From NCBI GenBank assembly GCA_028718185.1, contig JAQUMH010000002.1, positions 4,088 to 68,087 of the forward strand: a stretch of DNA of 64,000 nt, read 5' to 3'. The translations under genes and the position numbers were made by a program. Below, in pieces: positions 3,589-34,260 of this stretch; positions within the stretch are counted from its first letter, which is position 1; every line of letters begins with the position of its first letter. Source of the DNA: Elusimicrobiota bacterium. GTDB lineage: Bacteria > Elusimicrobiota > UBA8919. The notes beneath the pieces were generated by a model, which saw only the letters and a program-made list of their open reading frames with translations, did no database searches and was not told where the DNA came from.

Positions 3589-3678
3589 GTCATTGCGAGC
3601 CCGCCAACGGTTCAGTGGCGGGCGTGGCAATCTCTATTTAAAAACTACGAGATTGCTTCACCTTCGGTTCGCAATGAC
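3589..3678. repeat. Palindromic mosaic element, family A (GTCATTGCGAG...GCAATCTC / GAGATTGC...TCGCAATGAC) with a nested hairpin CCCGCCAACGGTTCAGTGGCGGG
   Basis: Read directly. Outer and inner arms are mutually complementary. The nested hairpin recurs inverted at 44165-44187. Confidence 0.8.
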
Positions 3679-3751
3679 ACCAGTAATAATCTATATTTTA
3701 ACTTCAACAACAACCTCTATTCTTAACCTTTAGTTTTGTGACCGGCTATTT

Positions 3752-10832: not shown

Positions 10833-12737
10833 TTAATGTCCAGGTGCTGTTATATAAGCATGAATAATTGACTGGAACTCATATTTTCTTGCTTCTATAT
10901 TTATCGTGTTAGCATAATTTTCATCAAAAGTTTCACCGGTATAAACTCGCCATAAAATTTCGTTATTAAAAAATTCTGCTAATTCTCTTCTCGCATAGAC
11001 ATCATTGTGTTTTGTAACCTTTTCCCGTAACTCAAAGAATTTTTTTGAATGTTGTACTGCAAGTTCGTTTTGAGGTTCATTTTTTGTGGCGCGCCAAGGG
11101 CGCGCTACTACACGAAATATATAAACAGGTTCTTTGTGGGGTTCAAGACGAACATAATTTTCTCTGCCATGCCATACATACTTCTTACCGGTAATCAATT
11201 CTTCTACAATATAATCCGTATCTGATGAAATACCAAACTCTTCAACAGGTACGGTCACTCTTGCATTCTGAATTTCAAAAGGATTAACATTTACCGCAAT
11301 TAGAATTATATTGTCTCCATATTTTTTTCCATAGAAAAATATATTGTCATTAATGGAATTGTAAATTCTTAAATTATCGTATTGTTGCAATGCAGGATTA
11401 GAGTTCCGTATTTCGTTGATTTTAGCTATATAATCTTTTATGTTTCCCTGTTTATTCCAATCCCAAACCTTATACTGGTATTTTTCCGAGTCGGCATAAG
11501 TTTCGGTTCTGGGAAAAGCATTTCCATCGCAAAGTTCATAACCGCTATAAATACCATACACTGAAGAAAGCGTGGAAGCGAGCGCGACTCTCATTTTGAA
11601 AGCAGGCTGTCCTCCCGACTGAATTATCGGCGGGCATATATCAGGAGTGTTGGTAAAATAATTTGCCCGTAAAAAATCCTTTAAATAAAAATTTGTTAAT
11701 TTTAAGACATATTCTATCAATTCATTTTTCCCGTTCCGCCAGGTAAAATATGTGTATGATTGTGAAAAACCTACTTTTGCAAGTTCTTCAAGCTTCTCAT
11801 AATTTGTGAATGCTTCCGCTAAAAATACGGTATCAGGATATTCTTTTTTTATATCACGTATGACCCACCCCCAAAACTCTGTCGGCTTTGTATGAGGATT
11901 ATCAACACGAAAATGGGTGACACCCTGTTTCCTCCAAAACACAAAAATTGATTTCATCTCCTGCCACATCATATCTTTGTTCGGCGGATAAAAATTTAAC
12001 GGATATATATCTTCATATTTTTTTGGCGGGTTTTCAGCATAGGCGATTGTTCCATCAGGTCTTTTGTGAAACCACTCAGGATGTTCTTTAACATATGGGT
12101 GGTCGGGAGAACACTGTAACGCAATATCAAGTGCGATTTCAATCCCAACTTTATTGGCTTCCTTTACGAAATGTTTAAAATCCTCAACTGTTCCAAGTTC
12201 CGGCTCCACAGACTTGTGACCACCCTGCTCGTTACCAATAGCCCACGGGCAACCGGGATCATTTGGTCCGGCATTTAACGAATTATTAGGTCCTTTGCGA
12301 TGAGACCTGCCTATAGGGTGAATAGGCGGTAAATATATAACGTCAAATCCCATTTTTTTGATATCAGTTAACCGATTTTCGCAGTCAGTGAATGTCGCAC
12401 TTTTCCCGGGTTGAATACCTTGTGAACGTGGAAACATTTCATACCAAGCTGCAAAACGTGCGTATTTTTTTTCAACCATAACTTCTAATATTTTACTGTA
12501 ACCGGCAATTGTATATTGATAAAAACCCGGTGTTATCGGAGTAAATGATGCAGTATATTTTACACCCTCTTTAAGCATTAAAATCTCTTTCCATTTTTTT
12601 TCTGATATTCTTTTGTATCTTAAAACAGGATGCTCATCGCCTTCAATTTCACAAGAAACAATAAACCCCCTGTCAACCTCAGTTTTAACAGGATACAACC
12701 CACCTTCTATTTCCGGATACACATTTTTAATAATCAT
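10833..12737 (-). CDS. glgE: Alpha-1,4-glucan:maltose-1-phosphate maltosyltransferase GlgE with an unusual ~95-aa C-terminal tail
   Basis: 634 aa. The N-terminus NVYPEIEGGLYPVK has the DUF3416-type start. The GH13 core includes FDVIYLPPIHPIG, HFRVDNPHTKP and FLAEAF. Confidence 0.85.
   Translation of the reverse strand: MIIKNVYPEIEGGLYPVKTEVDRGFIVSCEIEGDEHPVLRYKRISEKKWKEILMLKEGVKYTASFTPITPGFYQYTIAGYSKILEVMVEKKYARFAAWYEMFPRSQGIQPGKSATFTDCENRLTDIKKMGFDVIYLPPIHPIGRSHRKGPNNSLNAGPNDPGCPWAIGNEQGGHKSVEPELGTVEDFKHFVKEANKVGIEIALDIALQCSPDHPYVKEHPEWFHKRPDGTIAYAENPPKKYEDIYPLNFYPPNKDMMWQEMKSIFVFWRKQGVTHFRVDNPHTKPTEFWGWVIRDIKKEYPDTVFLAEAFTNYEKLEELAKVGFSQSYTYFTWRNGKNELIEYVLKLTNFYLKDFLRANYFTNTPDICPPIIQSGGQPAFKMRVALASTLSSVYGIYSGYELCDGNAFPRTETYADSEKYQYKVWDWNKQGNIKDYIAKINEIRNSNPALQQYDNLRIYNSINDNIFFYGKKYGDNIILIAVNVNPFEIQNARVTVPVEEFGISSDTDYIVEELITGKKYVWHGRENYVRLEPHKEPVYIFRVVARPWRATKNEPQNELAVQHSKKFFELREKVTKHNDVYARRELAEFFNNEILWRVYTGETFDENYANTINIEARKYEFQSIIHAYITAPGH
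11087..11112. repeat. Palindromic module (GTGGCGCGCCAAGGGCGCGCTACTACA) inside the glgE reading frame
   Basis: It has the same architecture (GC stem, CCAAGG loop, then ACTACA) as the intergenic copies at 19385-19407 and 44011-44035. It is translated as VVARPWRAT. Confidence 0.75.
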
Positions 12738-12796
12738 AAATATAAACCTCTTAACATTGCATTAATATCGCAAGTAAGCAAGAAATTTTCGCACAA

Positions 12797-12920
12797 CCTA
12801 ATCACAGAGCGAGGGAGTTGTTGAGCAGAACTTCACGGAGTTCCGCTTAAAACATTCAGCGGAACGAGTGAGAGTGCCAGCACAAGCTGGACACGGTTCT
12901 GCGAAACAAGCTCCCGAGCG
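12797..12920. repeat. Conserved ~125-nt structured element, copy R1 (three-helix design)
   Basis: The 63-nt stretch 12816-12878 is identical to 42799-42861. A long-range helix pairs GCAGAAC (12824-12830) with GTTCTGC (12896-12902). There is an internal hairpin GTTCCGCT/AGCGGAAC and a second hairpin CCAGC/GCTGG. Confidence 0.75.
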
Positions 12921-12953
12921 CAAATCAAGAAAATTTGCTTGCGAACGTTTTTT

Positions 12954-13952
12954 TTAAGTTTCTCTCAAAAATTTTGCTGCTTCTTCCGGCGGTGTCGGAT
13001 TTATATAAAAACCTGTTCCCCATTCAAATCCGGCAACTTTTGTTAATCGCGGCATCATCTCTAAATGCCAGTGATAGTATAGCGATTTTCCGCTACGGCA
13101 AGGTGAATTATGTATGACAAAATTATAAGGCGGGTCTTCTAACGTTCTGTTCATTCGCCCATTAATATCCCTTAAAATCATAGCAAGATTTACAACTTCG
13201 TGTTTTTGCAAATCCTCAAATACTGATGAATGAACTTTTGGAAGTATCCATGTTTCAAAAGGAAATCTTGACGCAAAAGGTGTAATACAAATAAAATCTG
13301 CGTTTTCAGATACAATTCTTACATTTGCTTCTGTCTCTTCCCTTATAATATCACAAAAAACACATCTTTCTTTATATTCATAATAGTTTCTGCTACCCAC
13401 CAATTCCTGCTTAACTCTTACCGGAACAGTCGGCATAGCAATAATCTGTGAATGTGGATGCACAAGCGAAGCACCGGCAGCAGCCCCGTGATTTTTAAAA
13501 ACTAAAATATACTCAAAACGTATGTCTTTTTTCAAATCAAGTGTCCTGTCACGCCATGCCCATATAATTTCTTCAACATCCTTATTTTCTATATCTGAAA
13601 ATGCGGCATTATGTTTAGGTGTTTCTATAACAACTTCATGAGCACCTATCCCATCCATAAAATCAAACATACCCTCACCGCGCCTGCCAAGATTTCCTTC
13701 TACCCTTAAAACAGGATATTTATTAGGAACAACCCTGACCCACCAGCCCTTTTCGTCTTTTCTGGTCCCGGGTTCTCTAAAAGATAAAATTTCGGGAGGT
13801 GTTTTACTCTCATTCCCCAAACAAAAAGGACACCCGCCGTTACTAGTCAAAGAATCTTCGTGAATTTTTTCAACATCCGGCTGAACTTTTCCCCGTTCAG
13901 TTGTAATAATTACCCACCTGCCAATAACCGGGTCTCTTCTTAATTCAGGCAT
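12954..13952 (-). CDS. GalT-family hexose-1-phosphate nucleotidyltransferase (galactose-1-phosphate uridylyltransferase-like)
   Basis: 332 aa. It has the N-terminal RRDPVIGRWVII, the zinc knuckle CPFCLGNE and the active-site motif HPHSQI. Confidence 0.75.
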   Translation of the reverse strand: MPELRRDPVIGRWVIITTERGKVQPDVEKIHEDSLTSNGGCPFCLGNESKTPPEILSFREPGTRKDEKGWWVRVVPNKYPVLRVEGNLGRRGEGMFDFMDGIGAHEVVIETPKHNAAFSDIENKDVEEIIWAWRDRTLDLKKDIRFEYILVFKNHGAAAGASLVHPHSQIIAMPTVPVRVKQELVGSRNYYEYKERCVFCDIIREETEANVRIVSENADFICITPFASRFPFETWILPKVHSSVFEDLQKHEVVNLAMILRDINGRMNRTLEDPPYNFVIHNSPCRSGKSLYYHWHLEMMPRLTKVAGFEWGTGFYINPTPPEEAAKFLRET

Positions 13953-20397: not shown

Positions 20398-23300
20398 TCA
20401 TTTTATCAGTCCTACCTTCCCGGTCTTCTTCCTGCCTGTAGCGTCTCTTATCTGATAAATATATACTCCTCTGGCTACTTTGTCTCCATCGTCATTCTTG
20501 CCATCCCACTCAAGCCAGCCAAGATTACCAAAGTCTGCCTCTTTGAGTTCCCTTGCCAATTCACCGGATACAGTGTATATCTTCATTTCACTGTTTATAG
20601 GCAGGTTTATTACCTTTAACTTACCACCTACCGCCATGTTAGGTTTATATGGGTTAGGATATACTTTCACATTACTCAGGTCTGTCGCAAGATAACTGCC
20701 CAATATACGATATGTTGTGAATCGTTTCACATTCGCTGTTATTGTCTTGTTTAGCTTGTCTACTATATGTACTCCAGGCACCAATTCCCACTCCCTACCG
20801 TTCCATGAATATATCCTTAATCCTTCTTCCTTTAATTCACCTATATCCACTAACGTGTATGGGATTGTTATGCTTATCGGCTTTGTAAATATATCTTCTT
20901 CCAATACCGATGTCTTATTTGTAAATGACAATCTTCCAAAATCATAACTTATGGGTTTCACGGTATCTACATATCTCGCTGCGTTTCTTACTACCGCCGG
21001 CGTCTTTGTCTTTATCACTGCCAAATTCCTGGTTTCTGTCAATACGTTTTCGCTCACTATTATCTTTAGTTTGTTTACTCCTTTTATCATTCCGCCATTG
21101 TTTCCTATTGGTTTTGCAAGATACATATCGTTGATATTTGTCAGGGTAGGCAACATGCTGTCTCCGGTAACTGATACTGTCTCTATTTCACTATTGAATG
21201 GTATTGATATCTCCCTTTCTCCTGTATCTTCTTTTGTCAGTATTGCGTCTGCAACGTTCAATATACCGGTTTTTGAGTTCTTTGTTGATAGTGTTAGTGT
21301 CCCGCTGTAATCCGTTGTGGGGTTATTGTCATTTGTATTGTATACTTGTGCTTTGAATTTCAAGCTTGATACTGTTATAGCTGGGTCTAATGACGCTGTA
21401 TCTAATGTCGGTCCGTCTTCGTAGTAATATGACTTTAAGGTGTTACTGTACTTTATAATAGGTTTTGGTGGTGTAGCGAGTCCTGTTACTGTCTCAAGAC
21501 GAACATCATCTATGTAATATGTATCGCCTGCAGTCGCATATGGCGTAAACCAGAACCGGAAACGTCCATCGGTTACCGGAGCTGTAAAGCCTGTGGTGAT
21601 AAATTCGGTAGTAAATGTCTGCCAGCTTGTGCCAAGGTTCGCTGTGTAATTCAAACCGTAGTCTGTGTATGGGGTCCCATGCTTTAACAAGTGTACTGTT
21701 ACGGCATGTCTGGTTGGCGAATAGGCTGTAAATATCAATCTATATCTGGTATTAGGGTTAAGGCAAATTCCTGTCTGGTATAATTGGATGTTACCATTGG
21801 CAGCGGTTATTGTACATTTGGCGGATTTGGCTCCTTCAAAACCTGGTGTTGTGCTAATAAATGTGCCTCCGCCACCTGCATAATATGCCCAGGAATCTGT
21901 ACCTGATTCAAAGCCGGCATTTATAACATGATTTGTGCCGGAAGAAGTGCTTAGTGTGCTGAACGTATAATTTTCGCTTGTTGCTATATTGCCGGAACCA
22001 TCTTTACTTGTTACATGGTAATAATATGTAGTACCTAACGTTAAGCCGGTTATGTTAACGCTATGGCTTGTTACTTTTGTTGTATCTGATGTCGTTGAAA
22101 TACCATATAGTGTTGTTGTACTGTACTCTACCTGTGAATCGCTTGGTTCATTGGTGAGCCAATTTATTACTGCGGAATTCCAGGTTATATTGCTGGATGT
22201 AACGCTCGTTATTATGGGCGGGGTTGTATCAGGTGGGACTGTTTCAAGGTGTATATCGTCTACGTAATACACATCACCTGCTGCTGCATATGGGGCATAC
22301 CACAACATTAAACGGGCATCAGTAACAACAGACGAAAATCCGGTTGTTACAAATTCGGTGGAATATGTCTGCCAGCTTGTGGTCAGGTTCGCCAAATAAT
22401 TATCCAAACCATAATTGGTATATGGGGTGCCGTGTTTGAACACGCGCACTGTCATATCATGTCCTGTATTGGAATAGGCTGTAAATGTTAATTTATATCT
22501 GGTATTCGGATTAAGGCAAATTCCTGTCTGGTATAACTGGATGTTACCGGTGGATTTGGTTATTGTACATCTGGCGGACTTGCTACCTTCAAAACCGGGT
22601 GATGTGGTAACAAACGAGCCTGCTTCTTCGGTATAAAAAGCCCAGGATGTTGTGCCTGATTCAAAACTATGATTACTTATGAAATTTATGTCGCTTGTAA
22701 ACGTATTGTCTTCGCTTGTTGAAAAATTACCTGATTCATCTCTGCTGCTTACCCTGTAATGATATACTGTACCAGGCATTAATCCTGTTATATTAGCACT
22801 GTGATTTGTTAACTTAACTGTACTTAACACTGTTGAGTTTCCATATGATGTTGTTAGTCCGTACTCCACCTGCGAATCGCTTGGTTCATTGGTTATCCAA
22901 TTTACTAATGCGGAATTCCAGGTTATATCGCAGGATGTAACGCTCACTATTATTGGCGGGGTTGTATCAGGTGGAACTGTCTCAAGATGTACATCGTCTA
23001 CGTAATACACATCTCCTGCTACTGCATATGGCGCATACCAGAACATTAAACGGGCATCAGTAACTACAGACGAAAATCCGGTTGTTACAAATTCGGTGGA
23101 AAATGTTTGCCAGGTTGTGGTCAGGTTCGCCAAATAATTACTTAATCCGTAGTTGGTATATGGGGTGCCGTGCTTGAACACGTGCAATGTCATATCACGG
23201 CCTGTATTGGAATATGCTGTAAATGTTAATCTATATCTGGTATTCGGATTAAGAACGATATCTTTTTGGTATAACTGGAGGTTACCGGTGGATTTGATTA

Positions 23301-26300
23301 TTGTACATCTGGCAGACTTGCTACCATCAAAACCAGGTGATGTGGTAACAAACGAGCCTGCTTCTTCCGTATAAAATGTCCAGGATGATGTGCCTAATTC
23401 AAAACTATGATTACTTATGAAATTTATGTCGCTTGTAAACGAATTATCTTCACTTGTTGCAAGATTACCTGCTGTATCTTTACTCTTTACCCTATAATGA
23501 TATACCGTACCTGATGTTAATCCGGTTATATTAACGCTATGATTTGTTACCTTAACTGTATCTAACACTGATGAGTTACCATATGATGTCGTTAGTCCGT
23601 ACTCCACCTGTGAATCACTTGGTTCATTGGTTAACCAATTTATTACTGCGGAATTCCAAGTTATATCGCTGGATGCAACATTCGTCATTATCGGCGGGGT
23701 TGTATCACTCATCACTTCAAACTCTGTTGTTGCAGATGAAGCATTACCTGCTAAATCAATAATATTTACTTTGCAAGTGTATGTACCGGAAGAAACATTT
23801 TGCCCAATTGTATTTTTGCCATCCCACTCACAACTATAATTTCCAGCAGGTACAGCCAAATTACTTATAAGGGCTCTTGTTAGTACATCATTATTGTAAA
23901 TTTCAACATTTATTACCGATTCTTTAGATAGAACAAATGAAATTTCTGATTTAATCCTTGCACCATCTGGTGATATTACTGCAGCAGATACCGATAAATT
24001 AGTTATCTGTGGTAAAGTGGTATCTCTTGTTATTGATGTTATTTTTGATTTAGGGCTATCAAACGGAATATTATTAAACCACCTCGTCGTTTTTGCAAAT
24101 ATTGGATTTGCTCCTTCTGAAAGCGAAATTTCTGCTGAAAATCTGCCATTACTATCTGCTTTTACTGTCTTCAAACTAGCACCGTCATTATATACTGTTA
24201 CATCTGCAACAGCTTCTACTACGCCTGTAATTGTTATATATTGCTGGTTTGTTATTGTTGATATATTTGCGTCAAATTCAGGTATTGGCACTTGTGGGAT
24301 TATTAAATACTGCGAAAATCCTACTACTTCACAACTTACTTCAAAAATATCGTTCTTCCCTGATGCATCTTTTTTCCACCCTAAACTTGTTAGTGTTGTT
24401 GGTTTTACTTTGCCATTACTGTCGACATGATATGCAGTGAGTTTTCCTATATCTACATTTGTAACTTCTTCAGGTAAAAATCGCACTGTTAAAACAGCAG
24501 GAGCAACTAATTTACCATTTCCATCTTTATTAAATTGTATATCTTTTGGTTCCATATCAAATAACGCACCAAGAGGCAGAGGCATACCTGTATCAACAAT
24601 AATATCTGTATCTGACAATTTTACTGGTGTTATGCTTACAGTGGTTGGTTGTAATAATGAATCAGTGTAAAATTCTAAATATGCTTTGTTCCATGGTGCT
24701 GATACATATTTATGTTCGCCAGGAAATACTTGTTTACCAACATATACTGTTTGCTCTATTTCTTTTACACCATTACCGGCAAATACATATAACTTTATTT
24801 TGTACTCTCCATTAAGTCCTGATACATCCCAAAATGATAGTGTATTATTTGAAACAGGTTGAGTGGATATTACCGGTATGGTTTTCAATATTGTATCGCC
24901 TGTCTTTTGATAGAACATTGAATATCCCTTAAAATCACTCCCAAACGCACTACCTTTTATCTCAACAAATCTTTTTGGTGCCGCTTCATCTGTTGATATT
25001 TTTACGGTAAAGTCGTCATTAATATCATTACTATCTGTGTTTGATGCTTTGGTAAGTTTCTTATCCACTACCAAATCATTACACATAGTGCCGTCTGGAT
25101 ATTGCAATTTTATGTCCCATTGTTTTTGAGTATCATAATTATCTGCATCAATCCACACATAAGGATTGTCTATAGTAGTTCCATTTTGTTTCCAAAAAGT
25201 ATATTTGTTTTTAATTTCATCGGGGTTATTCATATTTACCAAAGGATATGCTGCAGAAATCGTTATTGGTCTATATCGGTCAGCAACTGTTGGTTCAAAA
25301 GGTCCTTCTATTACAAAATCTGCTTGAAGATTATTACCACTATTATTAAATTCATTATTTTTACTAATGATCTTATGTTCTGGCAATCCTTGGTCATCTG
25401 TTGTCATATCCCATGATTCTTTCTCGTTGGTTGTCGCTTTTAATTCTAAAAGACCTCTTTCTTCTACTATTGTTTTAAGGACTTTAGGATTTGTTTGAGT
25501 CACAAATGTATAAGGAGATGATGACGGAATATAGTCATACGGTATTCTTATTTCTTCAATTGAATTGTAAGTATCGTGCCCATTATAACAAGTATTATTT
25601 ACAGTTACTGAAGGTTCGTAATTTGCATTTATTTTTACTTCACGTAAAACAGGAGTTTTACTTCCATCATTTGTAGATAAAGTTGCTTTCCATCTGATGT
25701 ATTTTCTTGGTGTTGAGTAAATTGGCTGACCAGGGGTTGCTGTTCTTTCAGATTCCCAACTATATCCATCATCACTCGTTTGAGTCGTATAAGTGATATT
25801 CGTTCCTGAAGGTTTGTATTCAGATACCTCAAAATTTCTCCAAGACGATGGTGCTGTTTTACAATCGTGTGCTTGAGAAATAAGTGTTCCAACTAAACCA
25901 AAATTCTGAGTGACATTGTATATTACTGGAGTTGTTTGTAAATCACGAGTAGCAAAATCTGCCCTCCATTTAAAATACCGTTTCTGACCAAGTGATGGCA
26001 CTACTCCATTTTCCACTATTGGGGCGGCTTCCCAGTTAATATTTTCTCCAGAACTATTGTAGCTTGCAATCCTATATGTTATGTGAGCCCCTCCTAAATA
26101 ACCTACATTATTTTCATCACTCGTTTGAAATAAGTTCCAAATTGGTGAATAAGAATATGTATCATGTTCTTGTGAAATAAACACACCTGTATTTTCATAT
26201 CGTTTTTGGTATCCCTCTATACTATTAAGAAATAAATATGCACCATGATTTGAATTGTGGGGCTGCACAAGGATCTTAAAATATGGTGCATAAAATGGTG

Positions 26301-29300
26301 TGGGAACTTCTTCATCAAATGAAATATTTATACTAGAACCATGAGAAACTACCTGACTCCAATACTTGTAAGTTGTCCATGGGCCATTTGAACTATTGCC
26401 GTATTGCAAGTAGATATTAGCACCACAATTATTTCCATCTTTATGCCATACAGCAACACTTCCTACTACCCGTAATCTATAAAATTTATAATGCCATGGA
26501 TATATAGGTGGTACACCTTGAGGAGGTCCTGAACGACCACAAACAAACGCCCAAGTGTTTCCATACCCAGCCCATGCAGGCCAGACAAGAGTACTATCAT
26601 TTCTATCATTTGCATTTGTCCAAGATGAACTAGGAGCAAGCGGATAATTACCCGAAATATCATCGTATTGTTCATGTATTGCATCCACAACATATTGACT
26701 AAACTGAACTTTATTATCAGCAATTATAAGAGTAGGTGTTTTTTGCCCATTATAAAAAGTAGAAATATCATCATATTTTTTGGTACATATCTTAACATTA
26801 CCCGACTCTGAATTTAGGTCAATATTACTTATGCCTCCTTGTCCAAAATCTTGTTGTGATGTTTGTATCCACGACTGTGCAGCATGTGTTTGCACAGTAG
26901 CAGAAAATGATTGCGGTGAATAATATTCCCCCTTTTTTACAGTTGCGGACCAGTTGAAATTAGAAGACCCTTGATTAACTGAATATGGTGCTGGTGAAGT
27001 AATTTCTGCTAACCCACTTCCTGGTCCTCCAATAACTGCAATTGAAACTGACGCGGAACCTTTTGTCTGGTCATCTACTGCAATAACATCTATCTTGCAA
27101 GTATATAACCCTTCTACAATACTACTCCAGACTGTTGTATACTCTGTCAACCCAGATGTAAATTCATTATCAACCATCTTTACAAGATTACCTACTGTAT
27201 CATAAATAGTAATATATACTGTAGCTGCTTTTGTCAGTTCATATGTAATTTGGACTGGTTCATTTAACAAGACATCTGATTTGTCTGATTCAAATTTTGT
27301 AATCTTTAGTGGTTCTGTTATGGTTACATTTACATTTACACTAACAGATTTCTTATCCATCCCGAGACCGTCTATATCTACTGCTGTTAATTGTATCCTG
27401 TAAATCCCATTTTGCACATACTGTTTTCTAAAATCCTTACCATCCCACTGTATTGTTTCACCAGCAGTTTTATTAAAATATTCTGAATGTAAAATTACCG
27501 GACCAAATGTGTTGACATCAACCATCTTAAAAATATCCAGTACCACATTTGACTTTTTGCCGGTATTCTGCATTAAAGTATATGAGATATTCAATTTATC
27601 ATTTATTGTGGTTATATTAAACACCTGGTCAGAAATAGGTGCTGTGATATTAAGTATCGGCTTGTCAGTTTCTGGAATTGTATTGTCCACTTTTACCGAT
27701 ACTGTTATTGCACTGTAGTTTGATGGCATAGCACTATCCTGTGCAACCAATAAAATTGTATAGGTACCATTTGGTAAAGATGATACATCCCAATACGCTA
27801 ATGTTGAATTTAGTATTGCTCTGTATGATGCATTAGAATTTGGATAATTTACATCATTTGGACTTTGATTTGACACAGGTACTGGTATCGATTTCCATAC
27901 ATTCATATCTGGACTTATGTAATTGTCTGGTGTCGCATTACTATAAGTAGCATACCATACTTTGTAACACAAAAAGTCAATATTATCATTTACTACTGGA
28001 TCTATTGCTATACCAACTATTTCTACTTGATTACCAACTATGCCATTAAATACTGGTGACACTATTTGGGCAGGTATCTGATTTTTTATTACATTTACCG
28101 TCTCTTCTGCTTTATTTCCTACTTCATCTGTTGTCTTTATTTTTATAACATAACTTCCATCACTTGCAAAACTGTTATCTTGTTTCTTTCCATCCCATGT
28201 ATAGGAATATAACACATCTTTTTGTTTTACCTCGGATATTGGACTTCGGACTATCTGTCCTAATATATCTTCAACAGCTACCTCTACTGTTGCATTATCA
28301 CTTATCTTATAATATGCTGTTACAGTATCATTTTTAAGTTCTGGATTAAATATTTGTATATTTGTGTAAAGTGTGGTTACAAATGACGGTGTTCTATCTA
28401 TCTTAAATGTTTGCAATATTGGAATCGTATTGCCTATATTTCCAGATTCATCTGTTGCTTTTAATCCTAATGTATACTCTCCATCAGACGCAGTATTCCC
28501 CAACGCATCTGTCCCATCCCAAGCATATAGAAGATTTTGTGTTATATTCGGTGTAACTACAAAATCTGTTACTTTTGTAAACAATCTTGTTCCTGATGTA
28601 AAAGTAAAACTCACCTTTGCTGATGGTGAAAATCTATCAAATATATCAAATGATATATCTACACTTTTATCATTTTTAGTAAAAATATTATGGGAATAAG
28701 CACCAGGATTTATATATATACTGCCATTTGATACCTGTGGTGGTGTTATGTCTACAATTATATCGCCTTCATATACCTTTAAGTTCTCTGCCTCATCAAC
28801 TGCTGTTATTTTACATTTGTAAATCCCTTCTGCTACTACTACCCCATTGGTATTTTTACCATCCCATATATCTAAATTTGCCCCTATATTCTTTGAAATA
28901 CTATCAATAAGTGTTCTTACTAAATTATTCTGTAAGTCATATATTTTTATTGTTGTTTTAATCACTGTTGAGAAATTATCCGATAAAGTATAATCTATCG
29001 TTGTTGCCTCTTTTATTCCATCACCATTAGGTGAGAATGCAAGACAGGAATAACTCGTTATATCTGGTGGAGTTATATCGTATCTCAACGTAACTGTTGC
29101 ATTTTTAGTGTAGTCAGTATTTCCAGCATTATCTTTAAGCCAGATATATAATATATTATTCCCTTCAACAACAGAGAAATTGGAAGTAAATGTTTGAGTA
29201 TTAGGAATATAATTTGCAGGTTCCGTATTTAACTTATAATATGCTCCTGCTATTCCTGATAAATCAGAAGGAGTTGACCATGATATGGTAAATTGTGTCT

Positions 29301-32300
29301 GGTTTGTCCAACCGGATGGTGAAACAGATAAAGATTGTGGTTTATCTGGCGGGGTCGTATCTACTATTATTCCATCACTGCTAACCGGGGTCTCGGAACC
29401 AGCTCCATTTTTCGCTTTCACTGTAAAATAATAAATACCGTCATCTAAAGGTGAATCAAATGTCCTAGTTATATTACTAAGTGTTCCTGTTGATGTTAAA
29501 GCGATAATATTATACCATCCAGTATTCGGATATTGTGATGTTCCTATTGCATATTGATATTCCACAATTCCAGAGATATCCTCGGTAAAACTCCAATTAC
29601 AAGAAAGTTGTGTGTTATTGTTTGTATATAACCCATCATTAATTGATACACACATTGGCGAAGTTGTATCAATCATTACACTGCCTCCTGTTAGCCATGC
29701 ACTCCATCTACCTGCCCCATTTTGAGCACGAACTTTTGCAAAATATGATTGACCATGAATAAGACCATCTACAGTATAATTTGTTTGACTATTTGGAACA
29801 TCTGCTTGTGCTATTAGGCTATCTGTGATGCTATTATAAATTGCAATATTAAAATTAGATATACCACTTTCCATATCGGTAGCAAAATCGCCTTCCCATG
29901 TAAATGTTACTGTTGTAGAAGAGGAATAGGCACCTCCTGCAAATCTTGGTGCCTTTGCAGGACCACTAGGCATTTCTGGGTCTGTTGTATCAAGATAAAT
30001 TTCATCCTTTATTTCTACTATAGAAATATTTCCTGCTTTATCTTTATATCTCGCCCATACCGTTTTATTACCTGCTCCTGCTGTCAACCACCAAGGAGAA
30101 TAAATATGTGTATACTCAATCCAATCTCCAATAAAAATTATTCCATCATAAGAAAACTGCATCCAACCAACTTCACTATTATCTGAAACTGTGGAATACA
30201 AACTAACTTGCTGACTACCTGTAAAATTTTCTAACGGTGCAAATGTATCTCTAATAAGTAAACTTCCAATCGGTGGGGTAACATCAATCATAAACTCTTT
30301 ACCAATAGTTGGTGTAACATTTGTAGCAATATTCTCTCCAATATCTTTTCCACTTATGGTAACGGAAACCATTCCTTCAACACCAGGACCAGAAACAATA
30401 TTTACTTCACCTTTATACACATTCCCTGATACAAGTATGGTTGCTACTTCTGTTTTATCATTCACAGTACCAGGAGCATCTATACTGAATGTTGGGTTGG
30501 CAGATAATTGTTCACTTGCAGTTATTTTTAGATAAATTGTTTGTGCTTTAGTTATTGGCTTTCCTGTATAAGTTGCTAATGGTTGTGTAAGATTTGAATC
30601 TGCAAAATATTCTACTGTGAAATTTGGTGGTATCATTGCTATTAAAGAGTAATCTAAATTATTAGCAAAAGCGTCTGTATTGCTTGGTATAACAATAACT
30701 TTGGAACAAGTTGTATCAAAATTGGAAATGGATACGGTATTACCAGTTTTATTTAAATCATTTTGTTCTTCTATAGTGCCATCCATTTTAACTTTCAACA
30801 CTTTGCCACCCCATAATGGTGTAACTACTGATGAATCAAAATTAAGGAGAAGCGTTTGTGGAGTTGGTTTATCAGGTGCTGGACGAAATTCAAAATAGTG
30901 ACTTGCAAGATGCATAACAGTATTAACTCCTGATGGGTATTGGTATTTAGCAGAAGTATCTAAAACTGTTATCTTCGGATAAGAATTACCTTCAATATAA
31001 TATTTAGAAGCATCATAATTCCAAACAGTAAATGTCTTAAATTCATTAGATAAACTTGTTCCATGACCTGATATTAATTCGCTATCAATTGCCGACAAAG
31101 AATCGGTAGTTTTACATATATCCCAAATCTGGCGAATTATATCTTTCTCATTAAATCTCTCGGAAAAATATTTTGCAAAAATACAGGAACCGTATTCATT
31201 CCAATCATTTATATAATCCAATGATTGAGTAGAATTTGCAAACCAAGATGGCTTTCCAGCAAATCCTTTAAGATATTGTAAATAGTCATTTACATTAGGA
31301 TAAATTTCATCTTCCATCCAGACAGATGTAGCTTCATTCCACCAATAATTATCATCTCTTGGATTATAACTACATTTAACAGCATGAAAAAACTCATGGG
31401 CGGAGGTAATCTGCATAGCATCTGTACCATGTGTATAAAATTTATCACCAATATAATCATTGTCTACCTGAATTATAGAACCTAAAATTGGATGTTTATA
31501 TGCAGTGCTTCCATATGCGCCATTTCCTAAATTTAAAATATAAACAGGTAATTTATTTTCAATTACAAAATATTCTGATGGTGGAGATTCATAACCATAT
31601 GAACCAGGTTTCACTATTTGGTTCCAACTATATTCAAAATACTGTCCAAAATTATATACATAATCGGGAATACCATTGTGTGATTGCCAACCTGCTGAAT
31701 TGACCTGATTAACATCAGGATTTGAAATTGTATATGCTCTAAAATGAAACTTAAAATTAGTGGTTTTATAAACGCCGTAAGTGTAATATACATCTTTTAT
31801 ATTGCTAACATTACCAGCAACATCCCACACTTGTATCATTATATGATTTATTCCTTGGCGAAGATTAATATTATCAAACGATTTAGTATCATTTGTGCCA
31901 TTTACGTATTGTTCTTTTGCTGGTCCTATTTCTGGTATTACCACTATTTTTTCCAATTGAATCGTATCTGACACAGTAACATTTATTGTTATTGTTTCAT
32001 TTTCTCCTTGATTTTGGTCAGGAGGATTAAATGAGACCACGGTAGGTTTAGTTTCATCAAGTATAATGGAAGTGGAAACAAAGGATGATATATTACCTGC
32101 ATAATCTTTAACTCTAAAATATATTGTTTTTGCACCTTCGCCAGTAGAATTAATATAATAAGATTTTGATATAGAATAATCTTCCCAAGTTGATGGCCAA
32201 TTATTAGAATCCTCAGTAAATTGCATTTTCGCCACACCGGAAGTTGCATCACTTGCTAATAACGCTAATGTAATAATTCTATTATTAGTAAATCCCGTAC

Positions 32301-32976
32301 CAGGAGAAGTAATTAAAACAGATAATCCACTCGGAACTGTTTTGTCTATCTTTACAGTTTGTGAATGAGTGGCTTCGCCATTACCAGTATTATCATATGA
32401 CCAATAGTAAACCGTATGCTCTCCATTAGCCCCAATTGCGAATGGCGTAGTGTAAGTTTGAGCAGACAAGTCACCATCAACCAGGTAAAGCGTTTTATTA
32501 ACTCCAGATGTTACATCATAAGCATTTAACGTTACCGTAACATCCGATTTATACCAACCATTTTCGCCGAATGTCCCTGATAAATTACAAGTTGTTGATG
32601 GCGAATATGTATCAAGGGTTATGCTATCATTTGTACTTCCTATATCAGTTGGGGAATAAGTAGTTACAAACACTTTCATATATACCGTTTTATTGCCATC
32701 TCCACTGCCTCCACCGTAAGCAGTCAAGTCCCAGCTGTATTTTATAGAACTTATTCCTTCCCAAGGGGACCATGACGAATTGTTGTTACTGAATATCATC
32801 CATTGAGCATCGGACGGTATATTACCGATGGTTAGCGTTGTGTATTTATAATTTGTATAATCAGCACCCGAGTTGATGTTCAAAGTTAAACCTATTACTC
32901 TTTGAGCGAAAGAAAATAAAAATACAAAACCTATAAAACATCTTAGTAAATAATAAAATTTAAATTTTTTATACAT
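20398..32976 (-). CDS. Giant (4192 aa) secreted multidomain surface protein: signal peptide, Ig-like/OmpL47-type domains, an HExxH metalloprotease-like domain, a series of FlgD-Ig-like domains, 3x (FN3 + CBM4/9-like) and a T9SS-type C-terminal domain
   Basis: A single uninterrupted 12.6 kb frame with a hydrophobic N-terminus. It contains HEFFHAV...NEATSVWMEDE and repeated ..SPNGDGIKE...WDGKN..G..V..G.Y motifs. Three units start TPPI(I/M)..V.S.DITWNSA.(V/I)NW.TNEPSDSQVEYG and continue N(H/A)(S/G)FE.G...W...YY(V/I)DD(V/I).LE. The C-terminus reads VYPNPYKP...GVYIYQI. Confidence 0.9.
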   Translation of the reverse strand: MYKKFKFYYLLRCFIGFVFLFSFAQRVIGLTLNINSGADYTNYKYTTLTIGNIPSDAQWMIFSNNNSSWSPWEGISSIKYSWDLTAYGGGSGDGNKTVYMKVFVTTYSPTDIGSTNDSITLDTYSPSTTCNLSGTFGENGWYKSDVTVTLNAYDVTSGVNKTLYLVDGDLSAQTYTTPFAIGANGEHTVYYWSYDNTGNGEATHSQTVKIDKTVPSGLSVLITSPGTGFTNNRIITLALLASDATSGVAKMQFTEDSNNWPSTWEDYSISKSYYINSTGEGAKTIYFRVKDYAGNISSFVSTSIILDETKPTVVSFNPPDQNQGENETITINVTVSDTIQLEKIVVIPEIGPAKEQYVNGTNDTKSFDNINLRQGINHIMIQVWDVAGNVSNIKDVYYTYGVYKTTNFKFHFRAYTISNPDVNQVNSAGWQSHNGIPDYVYNFGQYFEYSWNQIVKPGSYGYESPPSEYFVIENKLPVYILNLGNGAYGSTAYKHPILGSIIQVDNDYIGDKFYTHGTDAMQITSAHEFFHAVKCSYNPRDDNYWWNEATSVWMEDEIYPNVNDYLQYLKGFAGKPSWFANSTQSLDYINDWNEYGSCIFAKYFSERFNEKDIIRQIWDICKTTDSLSAIDSELISGHGTSLSNEFKTFTVWNYDASKYYIEGNSYPKITVLDTSAKYQYPSGVNTVMHLASHYFEFRPAPDKPTPQTLLLNFDSSVVTPLWGGKVLKVKMDGTIEEQNDLNKTGNTVSISNFDTTCSKVIVIPSNTDAFANNLDYSLIAMIPPNFTVEYFADSNLTQPLATYTGKPITKAQTIYLKITASEQLSANPTFSIDAPGTVNDKTEVATILVSGNVYKGEVNIVSGPGVEGMVSVTISGKDIGENIATNVTPTIGKEFMIDVTPPIGSLLIRDTFAPLENFTGSQQVSLYSTVSDNSEVGWMQFSYDGIIFIGDWIEYTHIYSPWWLTAGAGNKTVWARYKDKAGNISIVEIKDEIYLDTTDPEMPSGPAKAPRFAGGAYSSSTTVTFTWEGDFATDMESGISNFNIAIYNSITDSLIAQADVPNSQTNYTVDGLIHGQSYFAKVRAQNGAGRWSAWLTGGSVMIDTTSPMCVSINDGLYTNNNTQLSCNWSFTEDISGIVEYQYAIGTSQYPNTGWYNIIALTSTGTLSNITRTFDSPLDDGIYYFTVKAKNGAGSETPVSSDGIIVDTTPPDKPQSLSVSPSGWTNQTQFTISWSTPSDLSGIAGAYYKLNTEPANYIPNTQTFTSNFSVVEGNNILYIWLKDNAGNTDYTKNATVTLRYDITPPDITSYSCLAFSPNGDGIKEATTIDYTLSDNFSTVIKTTIKIYDLQNNLVRTLIDSISKNIGANLDIWDGKNTNGVVVAEGIYKCKITAVDEAENLKVYEGDIIVDITPPQVSNGSIYINPGAYSHNIFTKNDKSVDISFDIFDRFSPSAKVSFTFTSGTRLFTKVTDFVVTPNITQNLLYAWDGTDALGNTASDGEYTLGLKATDESGNIGNTIPILQTFKIDRTPSFVTTLYTNIQIFNPELKNDTVTAYYKISDNATVEVAVEDILGQIVRSPISEVKQKDVLYSYTWDGKKQDNSFASDGSYVIKIKTTDEVGNKAEETVNVIKNQIPAQIVSPVFNGIVGNQVEIVGIAIDPVVNDNIDFLCYKVWYATYSNATPDNYISPDMNVWKSIPVPVSNQSPNDVNYPNSNASYRAILNSTLAYWDVSSLPNGTYTILLVAQDSAMPSNYSAITVSVKVDNTIPETDKPILNITAPISDQVFNITTINDKLNISYTLMQNTGKKSNVVLDIFKMVDVNTFGPVILHSEYFNKTAGETIQWDGKDFRKQYVQNGIYRIQLTAVDIDGLGMDKKSVSVNVNVTITEPLKITKFESDKSDVLLNEPVQITYELTKAATVYITIYDTVGNLVKMVDNEFTSGLTEYTTVWSSIVEGLYTCKIDVIAVDDQTKGSASVSIAVIGGPGSGLAEITSPAPYSVNQGSSNFNWSATVKKGEYYSPQSFSATVQTHAAQSWIQTSQQDFGQGGISNIDLNSESGNVKICTKKYDDISTFYNGQKTPTLIIADNKVQFSQYVVDAIHEQYDDISGNYPLAPSSSWTNANDRNDSTLVWPAWAGYGNTWAFVCGRSGPPQGVPPIYPWHYKFYRLRVVGSVAVWHKDGNNCGANIYLQYGNSSNGPWTTYKYWSQVVSHGSSINISFDEEVPTPFYAPYFKILVQPHNSNHGAYLFLNSIEGYQKRYENTGVFISQEHDTYSYSPIWNLFQTSDENNVGYLGGAHITYRIASYNSSGENINWEAAPIVENGVVPSLGQKRYFKWRADFATRDLQTTPVIYNVTQNFGLVGTLISQAHDCKTAPSSWRNFEVSEYKPSGTNITYTTQTSDDGYSWESERTATPGQPIYSTPRKYIRWKATLSTNDGSKTPVLREVKINANYEPSVTVNNTCYNGHDTYNSIEEIRIPYDYIPSSSPYTFVTQTNPKVLKTIVEERGLLELKATTNEKESWDMTTDDQGLPEHKIISKNNEFNNSGNNLQADFVIEGPFEPTVADRYRPITISAAYPLVNMNNPDEIKNKYTFWKQNGTTIDNPYVWIDADNYDTQKQWDIKLQYPDGTMCNDLVVDKKLTKASNTDSNDINDDFTVKISTDEAAPKRFVEIKGSAFGSDFKGYSMFYQKTGDTILKTIPVISTQPVSNNTLSFWDVSGLNGEYKIKLYVFAGNGVKEIEQTVYVGKQVFPGEHKYVSAPWNKAYLEFYTDSLLQPTTVSITPVKLSDTDIIVDTGMPLPLGALFDMEPKDIQFNKDGNGKLVAPAVLTVRFLPEEVTNVDIGKLTAYHVDSNGKVKPTTLTSLGWKKDASGKNDIFEVSCEVVGFSQYLIIPQVPIPEFDANISTITNQQYITITGVVEAVADVTVYNDGASLKTVKADSNGRFSAEISLSEGANPIFAKTTRWFNNIPFDSPKSKITSITRDTTLPQITNLSVSAAVISPDGARIKSEISFVLSKESVINVEIYNNDVLTRALISNLAVPAGNYSCEWDGKNTIGQNVSSGTYTCKVNIIDLAGNASSATTEFEVMSDTTPPIMTNVASSDITWNSAVINWLTNEPSDSQVEYGLTTSYGNSSVLDTVKVTNHSVNITGLTSGTVYHYRVKSKDTAGNLATSEDNSFTSDINFISNHSFELGTSSWTFYTEEAGSFVTTSPGFDGSKSARCTIIKSTGNLQLYQKDIVLNPNTRYRLTFTAYSNTGRDMTLHVFKHGTPYTNYGLSNYLANLTTTWQTFSTEFVTTGFSSVVTDARLMFWYAPYAVAGDVYYVDDVHLETVPPDTTPPIIVSVTSCDITWNSALVNWITNEPSDSQVEYGLTTSYGNSTVLSTVKLTNHSANITGLMPGTVYHYRVSSRDESGNFSTSEDNTFTSDINFISNHSFESGTTSWAFYTEEAGSFVTTSPGFEGSKSARCTITKSTGNIQLYQTGICLNPNTRYKLTFTAYSNTGHDMTVRVFKHGTPYTNYGLDNYLANLTTSWQTYSTEFVTTGFSSVVTDARLMLWYAPYAAAGDVYYVDDIHLETVPPDTTPPIITSVTSSNITWNSAVINWLTNEPSDSQVEYSTTTLYGISTTSDTTKVTSHSVNITGLTLGTTYYYHVTSKDGSGNIATSENYTFSTLSTSSGTNHVINAGFESGTDSWAYYAGGGGTFISTTPGFEGAKSAKCTITAANGNIQLYQTGICLNPNTRYRLIFTAYSPTRHAVTVHLLKHGTPYTDYGLNYTANLGTSWQTFTTEFITTGFTAPVTDGRFRFWFTPYATAGDTYYIDDVRLETVTGLATPPKPIIKYSNTLKSYYYEDGPTLDTASLDPAITVSSLKFKAQVYNTNDNNPTTDYSGTLTLSTKNSKTGILNVADAILTKEDTGEREISIPFNSEIETVSVTGDSMLPTLTNINDMYLAKPIGNNGGMIKGVNKLKIIVSENVLTETRNLAVIKTKTPAVVRNAARYVDTVKPISYDFGRLSFTNKTSVLEEDIFTKPISITIPYTLVDIGELKEEGLRIYSWNGREWELVPGVHIVDKLNKTITANVKRFTTYRILGSYLATDLSNVKVYPNPYKPNMAVGGKLKVINLPINSEMKIYTVSGELARELKEADFGNLGWLEWDGKNDDGDKVARGVYIYQIRDATGRKKTGKVGLIK
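20401..20670 (-). other. T9SS-type / FlgD-Ig-like C-terminal sorting domain of the giant protein (last ~90 aa)
   Basis: The sequence is VKVYPNPYKP..KLKVINLP..MKIYTVSGELAREL....WDGKNDDGDKVARGVYIYQIRD...GKVGLIK. It fits the Por-secretion CTD pattern (YPNP at the start, G.Y near the end). Confidence 0.65.
21492..23706 (-). repeat. Intragenic tandem triplication, 3 x 738 nt (246 aa each: FN3 + CBM4/9-like module)
   Basis: The equivalent Asp codons of PPDTTPPI lie at 23704-23706, 22966-22968 and 22228-22230, an exact 738-nt period. Units 1 and 2 look about nine-tenths identical at the nucleotide level over the stretches compared by eye. Unit 3 is clearly more diverged. Confidence 0.9.
31333..31398 (-). 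other. Putative zinc-metalloprotease active site (HEFFH at residues 527-531, candidate third-ligand Glu at 548/555)
   Basis: The reverse complement of 31384-31398 encodes HEFFH. It is followed by AVKCSYNPRDDNYWWNEATSVWMEDE, which resembles the thermolysin-type HExxHAV plus downstream E arrangement. Confidence 0.55.
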
Positions 32977-32981
32977 AAAAA

Positions 32982-34172
32982 CTATTGTTTTTTCTTAATT
33001 AAAATAATATTTATTTCCTTTGTGCTGGTATTCCCATAACAATCAGTGGCAACTACTTTAACTTTATTTACTCCTTCTTTTTGAAGATATGGTTTAATAT
33101 CATCCAAAGAATATACTTTTTTTCTGAAGCTAGTAGTAAAATTATATGGGGACCCAAAACTTATACGTTTGTTATTAGAATATGTGCATAATAATGTTGG
33201 ACTACTATCTCCATATATAAACTTTATTGAACCATATATCTTGCCTTTCACATATTCTTCATATGGTATCTCATCAAACTTTTGCCCATCTTCTACACCT
33301 TCTATCTCTATTGTGGGTGGGGTAATGTCTGTTTTGGCTTTCGGTGGATAAACAATCCAAACACTATCAAAATCCTCTTGCATCGCAAACTTACTTCCTT
33401 CATTCTCTGCACCAATACTAACATTCCAGATTCCTGTTGATGGTAATACCCCCGTCTCACTGAAATTATATATATTTTGTCCAGGAGGACCATATAATTC
33501 TACAAGTCCAGGTTTATCTTTAAACTGTTCTTTAAATTCAAGATAATATTTTCTACCTCGTTCTTTTCCATACATCTTCTCTTGATATATTTCTTCCGGT
33601 AATATATGTTCCACTTTAGATAATTTTATCTTTTGTTTTTCTGTTATACTTACATCTCCAATTTTTATCCAAGCATTTGTTACATTATAAACCTCTGGCG
33701 TTTCTATTGTGCCTTTTATTACTATATTAGACGAATCTACCACTTCACTATCTTTTGGTTCAATTATCTTAACAATAGAACTTTGCTCGCTATAAAAATT
33801 TAATCTATTTTTCCATGTTATTATTTTTATTTTCTTCTTGTTCACCTCACTTAACTTATTCCATATATTTTCTAATTCTCGTTGAATATCTAATGTAGAA
33901 TTCTTTTTCTGATACAATCGCATATTAGGCTTCTTATATTTTTGAGGTAAAGAATCAGGATCATTTATGCAGTAGAACTTATACATAAATGCCGTCTCTT
34001 CATCTATAATTCCTGCATGCCGATCATCTTCCACCAAATTCCACGACCTTTTTTCACCAGGGTTAGAAACCGCTTCCCTGGCAAACATTATGCCGATTCC
34101 TCCAATCAAATCAACAAATAAACAAATTAACACCCACTTGTTAAACAATTTTCTTATCAACATTTTTTTCAC
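32982..34172 (-). CDS. Hypothetical membrane-anchored protein (396 aa), no family recognised; its stop lies 5 nt before the giant-gene start
   Basis: It has an N-terminal TM (WVLICLFVDLIGGIGIMF). The rest looks predicted beta-rich (VVATDCYGNTSTKEINI is an Ig-like-type ending). The tight spacing suggests translational coupling. Confidence 0.6.
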   Translation of the reverse strand: MKKMLIRKLFNKWVLICLFVDLIGGIGIMFAREAVSNPGEKRSWNLVEDDRHAGIIDEETAFMYKFYCINDPDSLPQKYKKPNMRLYQKKNSTLDIQRELENIWNKLSEVNKKKIKIITWKNRLNFYSEQSSIVKIIEPKDSEVVDSSNIVIKGTIETPEVYNVTNAWIKIGDVSITEKQKIKLSKVEHILPEEIYQEKMYGKERGRKYYLEFKEQFKDKPGLVELYGPPGQNIYNFSETGVLPSTGIWNVSIGAENEGSKFAMQEDFDSVWIVYPPKAKTDITPPTIEIEGVEDGQKFDEIPYEEYVKGKIYGSIKFIYGDSSPTLLCTYSNNKRISFGSPYNFTTSFRKKVYSLDDIKPYLQKEGVNKVKVVATDCYGNTSTKEINIILIKKKQ

Positions 34173-34260
34173 CTCTATTTTATCTAAAATATTATTTTAT
34201 TTTTCCTAAATCTGTTTTAGTTTTATCACCAAGTTTTACTGGTTTTGTCTCTTCAAATAA

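Follow-up and report, generated by a model that had tools for sequence, protein, structure and literature searches.

Why should two separate spacers in a bacterial genome share a stretch of 63 identical nucleotides? The question is raised by a window of 64,000 nucleotides from Elusimicrobiota bacterium (GTDB lineage Bacteria; Elusimicrobiota; UBA8919; GenBank assembly GCA_028718185.1, contig JAQUMH010000002.1, positions 4,088 to 68,087 of the forward strand), to which all coordinates refer unless a related locus (L001 and so on) is named. An earlier note, made from the letters of the window, had described a structured element in two copies, R1 between a galT-like gene and glgE, and R2 within another gene pair, and had posed a recently mobile element and a constrained structure as alternatives. 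The evidence presented here supports both at once. The element, which we call E, is a new family in a new modular superfamily (E/F) of a known general kind, and none was described before in the Elusimicrobia literature that we searched. On balance, we take E/F to be probably a previously undescribed family of non-autonomous, modular, BOX/ERIC-like interspersed repeats, because its non-coding copies stand at unrelated sites, vary in presence and absence between relatives, include a duplication within one lineage, have exchangeable interiors, are nested in one another and are accompanied by palindromes next to a common motif.

Results

The insertion of E is most evident where orthologous spacers can be compared. 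At all three testable sites (galT|glgE, pilT|pilT and secD|secF), close relatives have spacers without E. The galT|glgE spacer measures 216 bp here; in two relatives, with GlgE identities of 76% and 82%, it measures 14 bp and an unrelated 122 bp, respectively. The pilT|pilT spacer measures 230 bp, against 7, 62 and 87 bp in relatives with 86-88% identity, in which the gene stops at the same codon. For the secD|secF copy of Elusimicrobia bacterium UBA4817, a relative with 93% SecD identity has a 4-nt gene overlap, and the alignment reveals a clean insertion that separates …TCAATAT from GATGCAA…; the spacers of relatives at 94%, 89% and 85% are unrelated and AT-rich. The two comparable sites of related elements termed F, described below (peptidyl-prolyl isomerase|DUF2851 and EF-G|AP-endonuclease), are likewise empty in relatives (2/2), and in one relative (L065) the site of the window's own F element is a spacer of 0 nt. 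Since the orthologous spacers of relatives are empty, the comparison shows the E copies to be lineage-specific insertions into very short operon spacers. R1 and R2 are 93% identical outside one hairpin (P4), against 77-86% with other copies; being mutually closest, they must stem from a duplication inside this lineage, after which P4 was replaced or remodelled in one copy at least, with 63 adjacent bases left unchanged. The suggestion of a recently mobile element is thus supported. Locus L007 was rejected as an orthologue of the R2 site, as it has no genes in common by blastx.

Two sites of the window, and no more, carry the 63-nt core reported earlier: 12816-12878 and 42799-42861 (+ strand, 0 mismatches). 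It was matched in 0 of 100 shuffled controls. Similarity between R1 and R2 extends beyond it (~12797-12922 versus ~42780-42911), so the extent of about 125 nt first proposed holds for the region of similarity, but not for the insert: the E core is about 115 nt long, and R1 together with its outer arms is a long form of about 177 nt (about 12770-12946). Minimum free energy folds of the + strand RNA reach -59.3 kcal/mol for R1 (z = -7.0) and -55.0 kcal/mol for R2 (z = -4.8), and contain all the helices that had been named (GGGAG/CTCCC, GCAGAAC/GTTCTGC, GTTCCGC(T)/(A)GCGGAAC and a third hairpin). The complements of R1 and R2 likewise fold, and as single-stranded DNA the elements fold on both strands (z = -4.6 to -7.1).

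The predicted E fold consists of a long closing stem (P1, a GA/GAA internal loop and P2), leading to a three-way junction that bears P3 and P4. In R1, the core element with P0 to P4 occupies 12806-12922 of the + strand (covariance-model match of 124.5 bits, E = 7e-32). Its P0 opposes the motif GAGCGA (12807-12812) to GAGCGC (12916-12921), giving two Watson-Crick pairs with tandem G·A on the flanks. The 5' strand of P1, GGGAGTTGTT (12813-12822), pairs with AACAAGCTCCC (12905-12915), with G12910 bulged; beyond the purine internal loop that lies between P1 and P2, the P2 strand GCAGAAC (12825-12831) pairs with GTTCTGC (12896-12902). P3 (12832-12872) is composed of TTCAC/GTGAG, a GGA/GA internal loop and the hairpin GTTCCGC-loop-GCGGAAC, and P4 (12874-12894) is a variable hairpin, GTG-CCAGC-ACAA-GCTGG-A-CAC, with a conserved bulged A at 12891. 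R2 is a short form (42789-42911, + strand; 98.4 bits, E = 1e-24), the P4 of which, CCCCGACG-TAA-CGTCGGGG (42860-42878, + strand, with the bulged A at 42879), differs wholly in sequence from that of R1 and is paired nonetheless. Around the R1 core, also on the + strand, lie an outer 5' arm, GCAAGTAAGCAAGAAATTTTC (12770-12790), which is an F-type terminus and pairs with 12929-12942 when folded with flanks, and an outer 3' arm, GAAAATTTGCTTGCGAAC (12929-12946), which pairs with the 5' arm. Homologous outer arms are present in L006 and L026.

An alignment of the 11 E copies recovered indicates that this fold is under constraint. Its core (P2, P3, the junction and the GA/GA and GGA/GA loops) is invariant across genomes, apart from single exceptions in P2, where one compensatory change from G-C to A-U (L011) and one G-U pair (R2) were seen. 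RNAalifold predicted 35 pairs from the 11 copies, 10 of them with compensatory double changes. In the model-fitted alignment, standard pairs make up 97.4% of cells, and both sides are changed in 9 pairs, a level reached by 0 of 500 shuffles, although, as the tool itself warns, these covariation statistics are inflated by sequence kinship and by the fitted alignment; sliding the partners abolished the signal. P4 holds most of the covariation, with six of its eight pairs changed on both sides, and retains the bulged A of its 3' strand and a CAR loop motif. P1 shows exchanges between GC and AU and between UA and CG. The alignment thus shows that the predicted fold is maintained by compensatory change in P1, P2 and above all P4. 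The stems of P3 are unchanged in all 11 copies; as P3 never varies, it gives no information on pairing, yet implies sequence-specific recognition. The E elements are 55-62% GC, within DNA of 34-40% GC.

The nine E copies beyond R1 and R2 all come from metagenome-assembled genomes (MAGs) of Elusimicrobia or from metagenomes. A metagenome scan with a 20-mer of the core gave four contigs, and a genome scan with an 18-mer gave 56 loci, 51 of which were chance matches in coding DNA of high-GC bacteria and five true copies (four contigs of UBA4817 and one contig of a groundwater Elusimicrobia MAG); a first genome scan, with a 20-mer extending into the variable hairpin, gave no match. The covariance model of E, built from the 11 copies, recovered exactly these from 167 kb of Elusimicrobia DNA and found 0 copies in about 220 kb from the closest relatives. 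Copy number among the sampled genomes ranges from one to at least four; UBA4817 has at least four E copies, and the window holds two E and one F. In total, 11 E and seven F elements were identified, sited between unrelated genes, and as far as sampled the superfamily is confined to one Elusimicrobia clade. An IS110-family transposase gene (L065 1509-2825) and an rve-type integrase gene (L076 12351-13571) are also present among the related loci, and neither adjoins an E or F element.

The earlier note could assign the element to no known RNA family, and the Rfam check agrees with it. Rfam 15 gave no match over the whole window at gathering thresholds; at E <= 10, the sole match in 12700-13000 was a chance match to HgcG outside R1. 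At permissive thresholds, R1, R2 and related copies had no match of their own either: L005-L008 gave only tRNAs, and around the F element of the window there were only weak chance C/D-box matches, which fall outside it in the adjoining CGCTGAT repeats. Among self-cleaving ribozymes, neither hammerhead, twister, twister-sister, pistol, hatchet nor HDV-like models gave an Rfam match even at E <= 10, and the CUGANGA…GAAA ribozyme core was not seen on reading the element sequence. Searches of plasmid and phage collections by blastn yielded nothing relevant, and three viral-contig scans yielded chance 18-mer matches only, which the covariance model rejected. A literature search for Elusimicrobia repeats or miniature inverted-repeat transposable elements (MITEs) found no description.

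A search with the end motifs revealed that E has common ends with at least two other elements of different interior, F1 and F2. The shared termini of this superfamily read (T)TAATCG-NG-GAGCGA-GGAAGAAATTT… at the 5' end and …AAATTTGCTCCC-GAGCGA-C at the 3' end. The window thereby contains a third element beyond the pair first noticed: an F2 element at 45910-46018 (+ strand), with the ends GAGCGAGGAAGAAATTT…/…AAATTTGCTTCCGAGCGA as in the outer arms of R1 and a different interior. Further F2 members lie in L008, L011 and probably L076, and F1 members in L006, L059 and L065, the last being a relative without E. In three long forms (R1, L006 and L026), the E core is nested in F-type outer arms. GAGCGA is a direct repeat on both sides of the closing stem; it is kept on both sides of P1 in the 11 E copies, and is also present in the F elements. 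Set antiparallel to itself, GAGCGA can form two Watson-Crick pairs with tandem G·A pairs on either side. The + strand of the window has five intergenic GAGCGA sites, every one of them inside one of the three elements (R1, R2 and F2).

A 22-nt palindrome, CCRAAGGRARTCCCTTYAGGGR, was observed five times in the related loci (L006 1211-1232, L011 5484-5505, L026 403-424, L042 2087-2108 and L059 685-706), in all five cases directly 3' of a GAGCGA-like motif (AGTGA once) and in one orientation. In the comparison of L026 with L006, it resembles a 25-nt insertion, with a possible duplication of CGA. The palindrome looks like a REP-like module that targets the E/F end motif. The gap that separates the F2 element of the window from the DUF2851 start also holds, at 45775-45875, some eight copies of (A/C)CGCTGAT at irregular intervals.

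The orientation of the elements with respect to genes is strongly non-random. All 16 elements next to protein genes (10 E and six F) have their purine-rich strand, which bears GAGCGA, antisense to those genes. R1 and R2 do lie inside co-directional gene pairs, as had been noted; these pairs are on the minus strand, and therefore the folded + strand is antisense to them. In both spacers between tRNA genes, the GAGCGA strand is sense (E between tRNA-Phe and tRNA-Thr in L011, F2 between two tRNA-Pro genes in L008). RNA folding finds the purine-rich strand to be the more stable in 19 of 19 elements, by a mean of 8.9 kcal/mol, a difference that is small under DNA parameters. As the well-folding strand is antisense to the operons, the mRNA carries the weaker complement. 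Replication direction was rejected as the cause of orientation, as the GC skew tracks the coding strand; L008 and L011 each hold two elements in opposite orientations, and therefore replication direction alone cannot set it. The earlier note had named copies without structure-preserving variation and with random orientation as grounds against its proposal; the copies instead show compensatory variation together with this orientation rule.

Read along the mRNA, the element starts at the upstream gene's stop codon or no more than a few bases from it. The junctions read TAG|TCGCTC in L026, L059 and L076 and TAG|CCGTTC in R2, the distance is 2-9 nt in most others, and in L006 the stop codon lies inside the outer arm. 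In the window, the galT-like stop codon (12954-12956, minus strand) stands about 8 nt past the R1 outer 3' arm, the 3' end of R2 adjoins the pilT stop codon (42911-42913, minus strand), and 2 nt separate the F2 element from the stop codon for peptidyl-prolyl isomerase (46021-46023, minus strand). Past the mRNA-strand 3' end of the elements, …CTCGCTC-NN-CGATTA, come an A-rich run, a Shine-Dalgarno-like sequence and the start codon of the following gene, with the consensus …CTCGCTC-NN-CGATTA-A(n)-AGGAG. CGATTA was rejected as a general translation-initiation motif, being intergenic in the window only at R2. It was found in E-free secD|secF spacers (L083 and L084) and near glgE (L001), and not at the other empty sites inspected. 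These E-free spacers (L083 2199-2230, L084 3113-3150, L001 9985-10000) bear (GGAGG)CGATTAAAA beside the secD stop or the glgE start, the motif found elsewhere after the element on the mRNA strand; it might mark a target or be left over from a lost copy. In the 108 nt that separate R2 from the pilT start, a palindrome, CCTGCCTACCGGCAGG(TAGG), was observed at ~42696-42722, and the spacers of relatives are without it.

The flanking pairs include galT|glgE, pilT|pilT, secD|secF, motB|motB-like, dcd|cvpA, SIS protein|cytidylyltransferase and HEAT protein|YggS-like. A riboswitch or gene-specific leader was rejected, as the downstream genes (glgE, pilT, secF, motB-like, cvpA, cytidylyltransferase, yggS-like, miaB-like and acylphosphatase) are unrelated and the folded strand is antisense; since the pairs are unrelated housekeeping genes, a gene-specific regulator is ruled out. 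No intrinsic terminator was called at R1 or R2, and no U-tract follows the element on the mRNA strand. On the top strand, a T-run of at least five follows the 3' end in six of 18 elements, and in most copies an AT-rich, -10-like hexamer (TTTAAT, TATAAA or CCTAAT) stands 4-5 nt upstream of GAGCGA; no consistent -35 box and no consistent terminator were found for a top-strand RNA.

Discussion

Reading E/F as interspersed repeats, we propose that an enzyme supplied in trans would copy the element, recognising the GAGCGA-bounded ends and the invariant core in a folded single strand. As neither proper terminal inverted repeats nor target duplications are evident, a HUH/Y1-like single-strand route or a recombinase route is more plausible than cut-and-paste by a DDE enzyme. 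Only insertions that preserve the operon would survive, i.e. those between a stop codon and a ribosome-binding site that place the weaker, pyrimidine-rich complement in the mRNA. The orientation rule would then be mainly a matter of survivorship, in genomes with operon spacers of 0-15 nt, and the survivors would keep the stop codon, the ribosome-binding site and an acceptably weak mRNA structure. As the paired base of the hairpin would hold the stop codon and the next start close in space, translational coupling may be tolerated.

Several observations speak against this interpretation. No target-site duplication is consistent across 18 elements, and the comparison of filled and empty secD|secF sites gives at most an ambiguous (A)ATAT. 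Nor do the ends form a convincing true terminal inverted repeat: their inner segments can pair with each other (P1 and the outer AAATTT arms), GAGCGA on the outside is repeated directly, and TAATCG at the 5' end finds a partner at the 3' end only in part. No transposase or other partner gene stands beside any copy or is present among the 28 of 36 window genes that were checked. A RAYT (Y1) transposase gene is likewise missing from those 28 genes, an inspection that covered about 64 kb and a number of short loci. The copies seen are few (from one to at least four per sampled genome), which would suit a selected small RNA as well. A core that is invariant across genomes and GC-rich in AT-rich DNA would equally be the trait of a selected functional RNA, and the purine-rich internal loops and the sense orientation in tRNA operons suit a small RNA equally well. 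The two copies in tRNA spacers are oriented oppositely to all the rest. Moreover, the mRNA receives the strand that folds less well, which would make sense only if the folded strand had a part in mobility or a transcript of its own.

A further idea is that the purine-rich strand is the active one, either as a new small structured RNA, perhaps catalytic or protein-scaffolding, or as the passenger of an undescribed single-strand transposition system, which we hold to be doubtful. In its RNA version, the possibility is that the RNA is expressed from the copies in tRNA operons and spreads via an RNA or a single-strand DNA intermediate; in its transposition version, a system might recognise the self-pairing GAGCGA with its tandem G·A and target the gap between stop codon and ribosome-binding site of operons. 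That E and its relatives are simply small structured RNA genes, read from the purine-rich strand (antisense in protein operons, sense in tRNA operons), seems unlikely to us. Such a model would see a protein-binding or catalytic fold in the paired ends, tandem G·A loops, invariant junction and bulged A, with GAGCGA as the recognition unit. The better folding of the top strand in every element agrees with it, as do the purine-rich GA/GA and GGA/GA loops that exist only on that strand, the G-U pairs that favour it, and the standing of the elements as GC-rich islands in AT-rich genomes. So does the placement of both tRNA-spacer copies, which are sense and end 2 nt and 5-6 nt before the next tRNA, at which trimming by RNase P would be expected. 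The transcription signals can be read both ways: the AT-rich hexamer upstream of GAGCGA and the T-runs in a third of the 18 elements are what such a gene might have, but most of the hexamers are without the critical A at position 2, and neither a -35 box nor a terminator is consistent. Against small RNA genes also stand the presence or absence between close relatives at every site tested, insertion between stop codon and ribosome-binding site, which resembles the survival of insertions rather than the placement of genes, common ends with different interiors, which are more typical of mobilisable modules, and the lack of an Rfam family.

The pyrimidine-rich complement could alternatively be what the host selects, as an intercistronic mRNA device, spread being secondary; by analogy with known repeats, a hairpin after the stop codon would shield the upstream cistron from 3' exonucleases or make a processing site, and so set the ratio of the two genes. 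We regard this as rather unlikely. The complement is indeed on the mRNA strand in all 16 protein-gene contexts, starts 0-9 nt past the stop codon or overlaps it with a ribosome-binding site next, occupies tight gene pairs (secD|secF, motB|motB, pilT|pilT) and folds at -40 to -55 kcal/mol, and REP/BIME and ERIC offer a precedent (PMC3049150). However, the mRNA-strand fold is the weaker in every copy, as its loops become U/C mismatches and its G-U pairs C·A mismatches; a plain stabiliser needs no sequence invariance in P2 and P3; the corresponding junctions of close relatives manage without the element, in some cases with genes that overlap; and the flanking genes have no functional theme. A DNA-level site (for recombination, for binding, or for initiation or pausing on a single strand) that uses the GAGCGA repeats and GTTCCGC…GCGGAAC and is possibly attC-like seems to us highly improbable. 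It could draw on the folding of single-stranded DNA on both strands, the direct repeats at both ends, the palindrome set in one orientation right after the GAGCGA-like motif in five of five cases (AGTGA once), and an orientation that is fixed in a genome whose genes all run one way. Yet the attC R''/R' consensus (RYYYAAC/GTTRRRY) is absent, judged by reading the sequences, the neighbours are core housekeeping genes in conserved synteny and not cassettes, the oppositely oriented pairs in L008 and L011 make replication direction alone insufficient, and no recombinase is nearby.

The interspersed-repeat reading gains from comparison with known systems. Pneumococcal BOX elements are modular, are predicted to fold and supply the stop codon of 36 genes, and the effects of ERIC on mRNA are orientation-dependent (PMC3049150). 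BOX (Streptococcus pneumoniae and S. suis; boxA-boxB(n)-boxC) and E/F are both modular: their terminal modules are conserved, and their interiors can vary or be exchanged. A long stem-loop is predicted for both, and both are intergenic, often within transcription units; BOX frequently reaches over the very 3' end of a gene, to which it gives the stop codon, and like E/F has no coding capacity and an uncertain mobilising enzyme (PMC3049150). In contrast to BOX, with which they have no sequence similarity and from which they are separated by phylum, E/F elements carry direct GAGCGA ends that pair only through G·A, the interior of E forms a three-way junction whose core is invariant, orientation to genes has almost no exceptions, and far fewer copies are seen than the 100 or more of BOX. 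ERIC/IRU (Enterobacteria and Vibrio; ~127 bp) is similar in size to E, and both are imperfect palindromes, strongly conserved in sequence across species and variable in presence at orthologous sites; ERIC and E/F both occupy transcribed operon spacers and have longer forms through the insertion of extra modules. Unlike E, ERIC is found both ways round, has the shape of a simple rod with no covarying side hairpin and is as a rule not flush with stop codons, and there is no sequence relationship.

REP/BIME and REPIN-RAYT (Y1 HUH) systems are, like E/F, extragenic, structured and mosaic, with a short conserved motif at the foot of a hairpin, and REP/REPIN are without terminal inverted repeats and target duplications, of which none is convincing in E/F. 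The mobilisation of REP/REPIN as folded single strands would be the best mechanistic analogy for E/F. REP units, however, are 20-40 nt long and number hundreds of copies, and REPINs are inverted doublets, whereas the end motif of E/F is direct. Classical MITEs (Correia/NEMIS, RUP, and those derived from IS630 or IS5) resemble E/F in being non-coding, 100-200 bp long, intergenic and folded in RNA, and either kind may carry in promoters, a ribosome-binding site, a stop codon or other regulatory signals; they differ in that the terminal inverted repeats of E/F are weak, with the outermost GAGCGA direct, and no target-site duplication is demonstrable. Integron attC sites and E are both folded single-strand imperfect palindromes with extrahelical bases, a variable central part and a fixed orientation after genes, but E lacks the R''/L''/L'/R' consensus (by reading), has syntenic core genes as neighbours and a much longer core, and no integrase is present.

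Hardly any non-coding or mobile DNA has been described so far for uncultured Elusimicrobia. The E/F elements account for sudden operon spacers of 100-250 bp in compact, one-strand genomes, and the covariance model, consensus ends, core and fold let annotators mask the repeats or use them as strain markers. They also provide a natural experiment: in tightly coupled genes such as secD/secF, a hairpin of 115-180 nt stands precisely in the gap from one stop codon to the ribosome-binding site of the following gene, always in one orientation. Should the orientation rule and the asymmetry of the strands stem from mechanism and not from survival, they would point to an undescribed mobilisation route or an undescribed small RNA. 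The family would gain much in interest if the purine-rich strand turned out to be made as an RNA, or to serve as substrate for a new system of single-strand mobilisation.

Other features of the window

The genes around R1 and R2 are all on the minus strand. On the mRNA strand, R1 lies downstream of the galT-like gene (12954-13952; Pfam GalP_UDP_transf) and upstream of the glgE-like gene (10833-12737; Pfam GLGE_C, GlgE_dom_N_S and Alpha-amylase), and R2 lies downstream of a gene for a PilT twitching ATPase (42911-43975; Pfam T2SSE) and upstream of one for a PilT-family ATPase (41586-42680; Pfam T2SSE). The GlgE and PilT proteins match proteins of an Elusimicrobia MAG at 100% identity. The minus strand holds all 36 long open reading frames (ORFs) of the window, an extreme one-strand arrangement, and GC skew on the + strand is strongly negative and tracks the coding strand. 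A block of about 18 kb (20398-38510) is missing from relatives, where the genes for an M50 peptidase and a poly(A) polymerase adjoin; it contains an ORF of 4192 aa with 738-nt tandem repeats (21488-23737), a PorV-like gene and an ORF of 1074 aa. At 52388-58787 there are three consecutive paralogous genes of about 2 kb, which contain direct repeats (54040-54449, 55992-56416 and 58304-58644) that are 69-78% identical. A second family of small hairpin repeats was observed at 3590-3680, 39700-39830 and 44030-44190. These have variable middles and the conserved ends GTCATTGCGA…GCAATCTC and TTCCCAC…GTGGGAA, and two of them contribute a perfect inverted pair of 25 nt, at 3599-3623 and 44164-44188.

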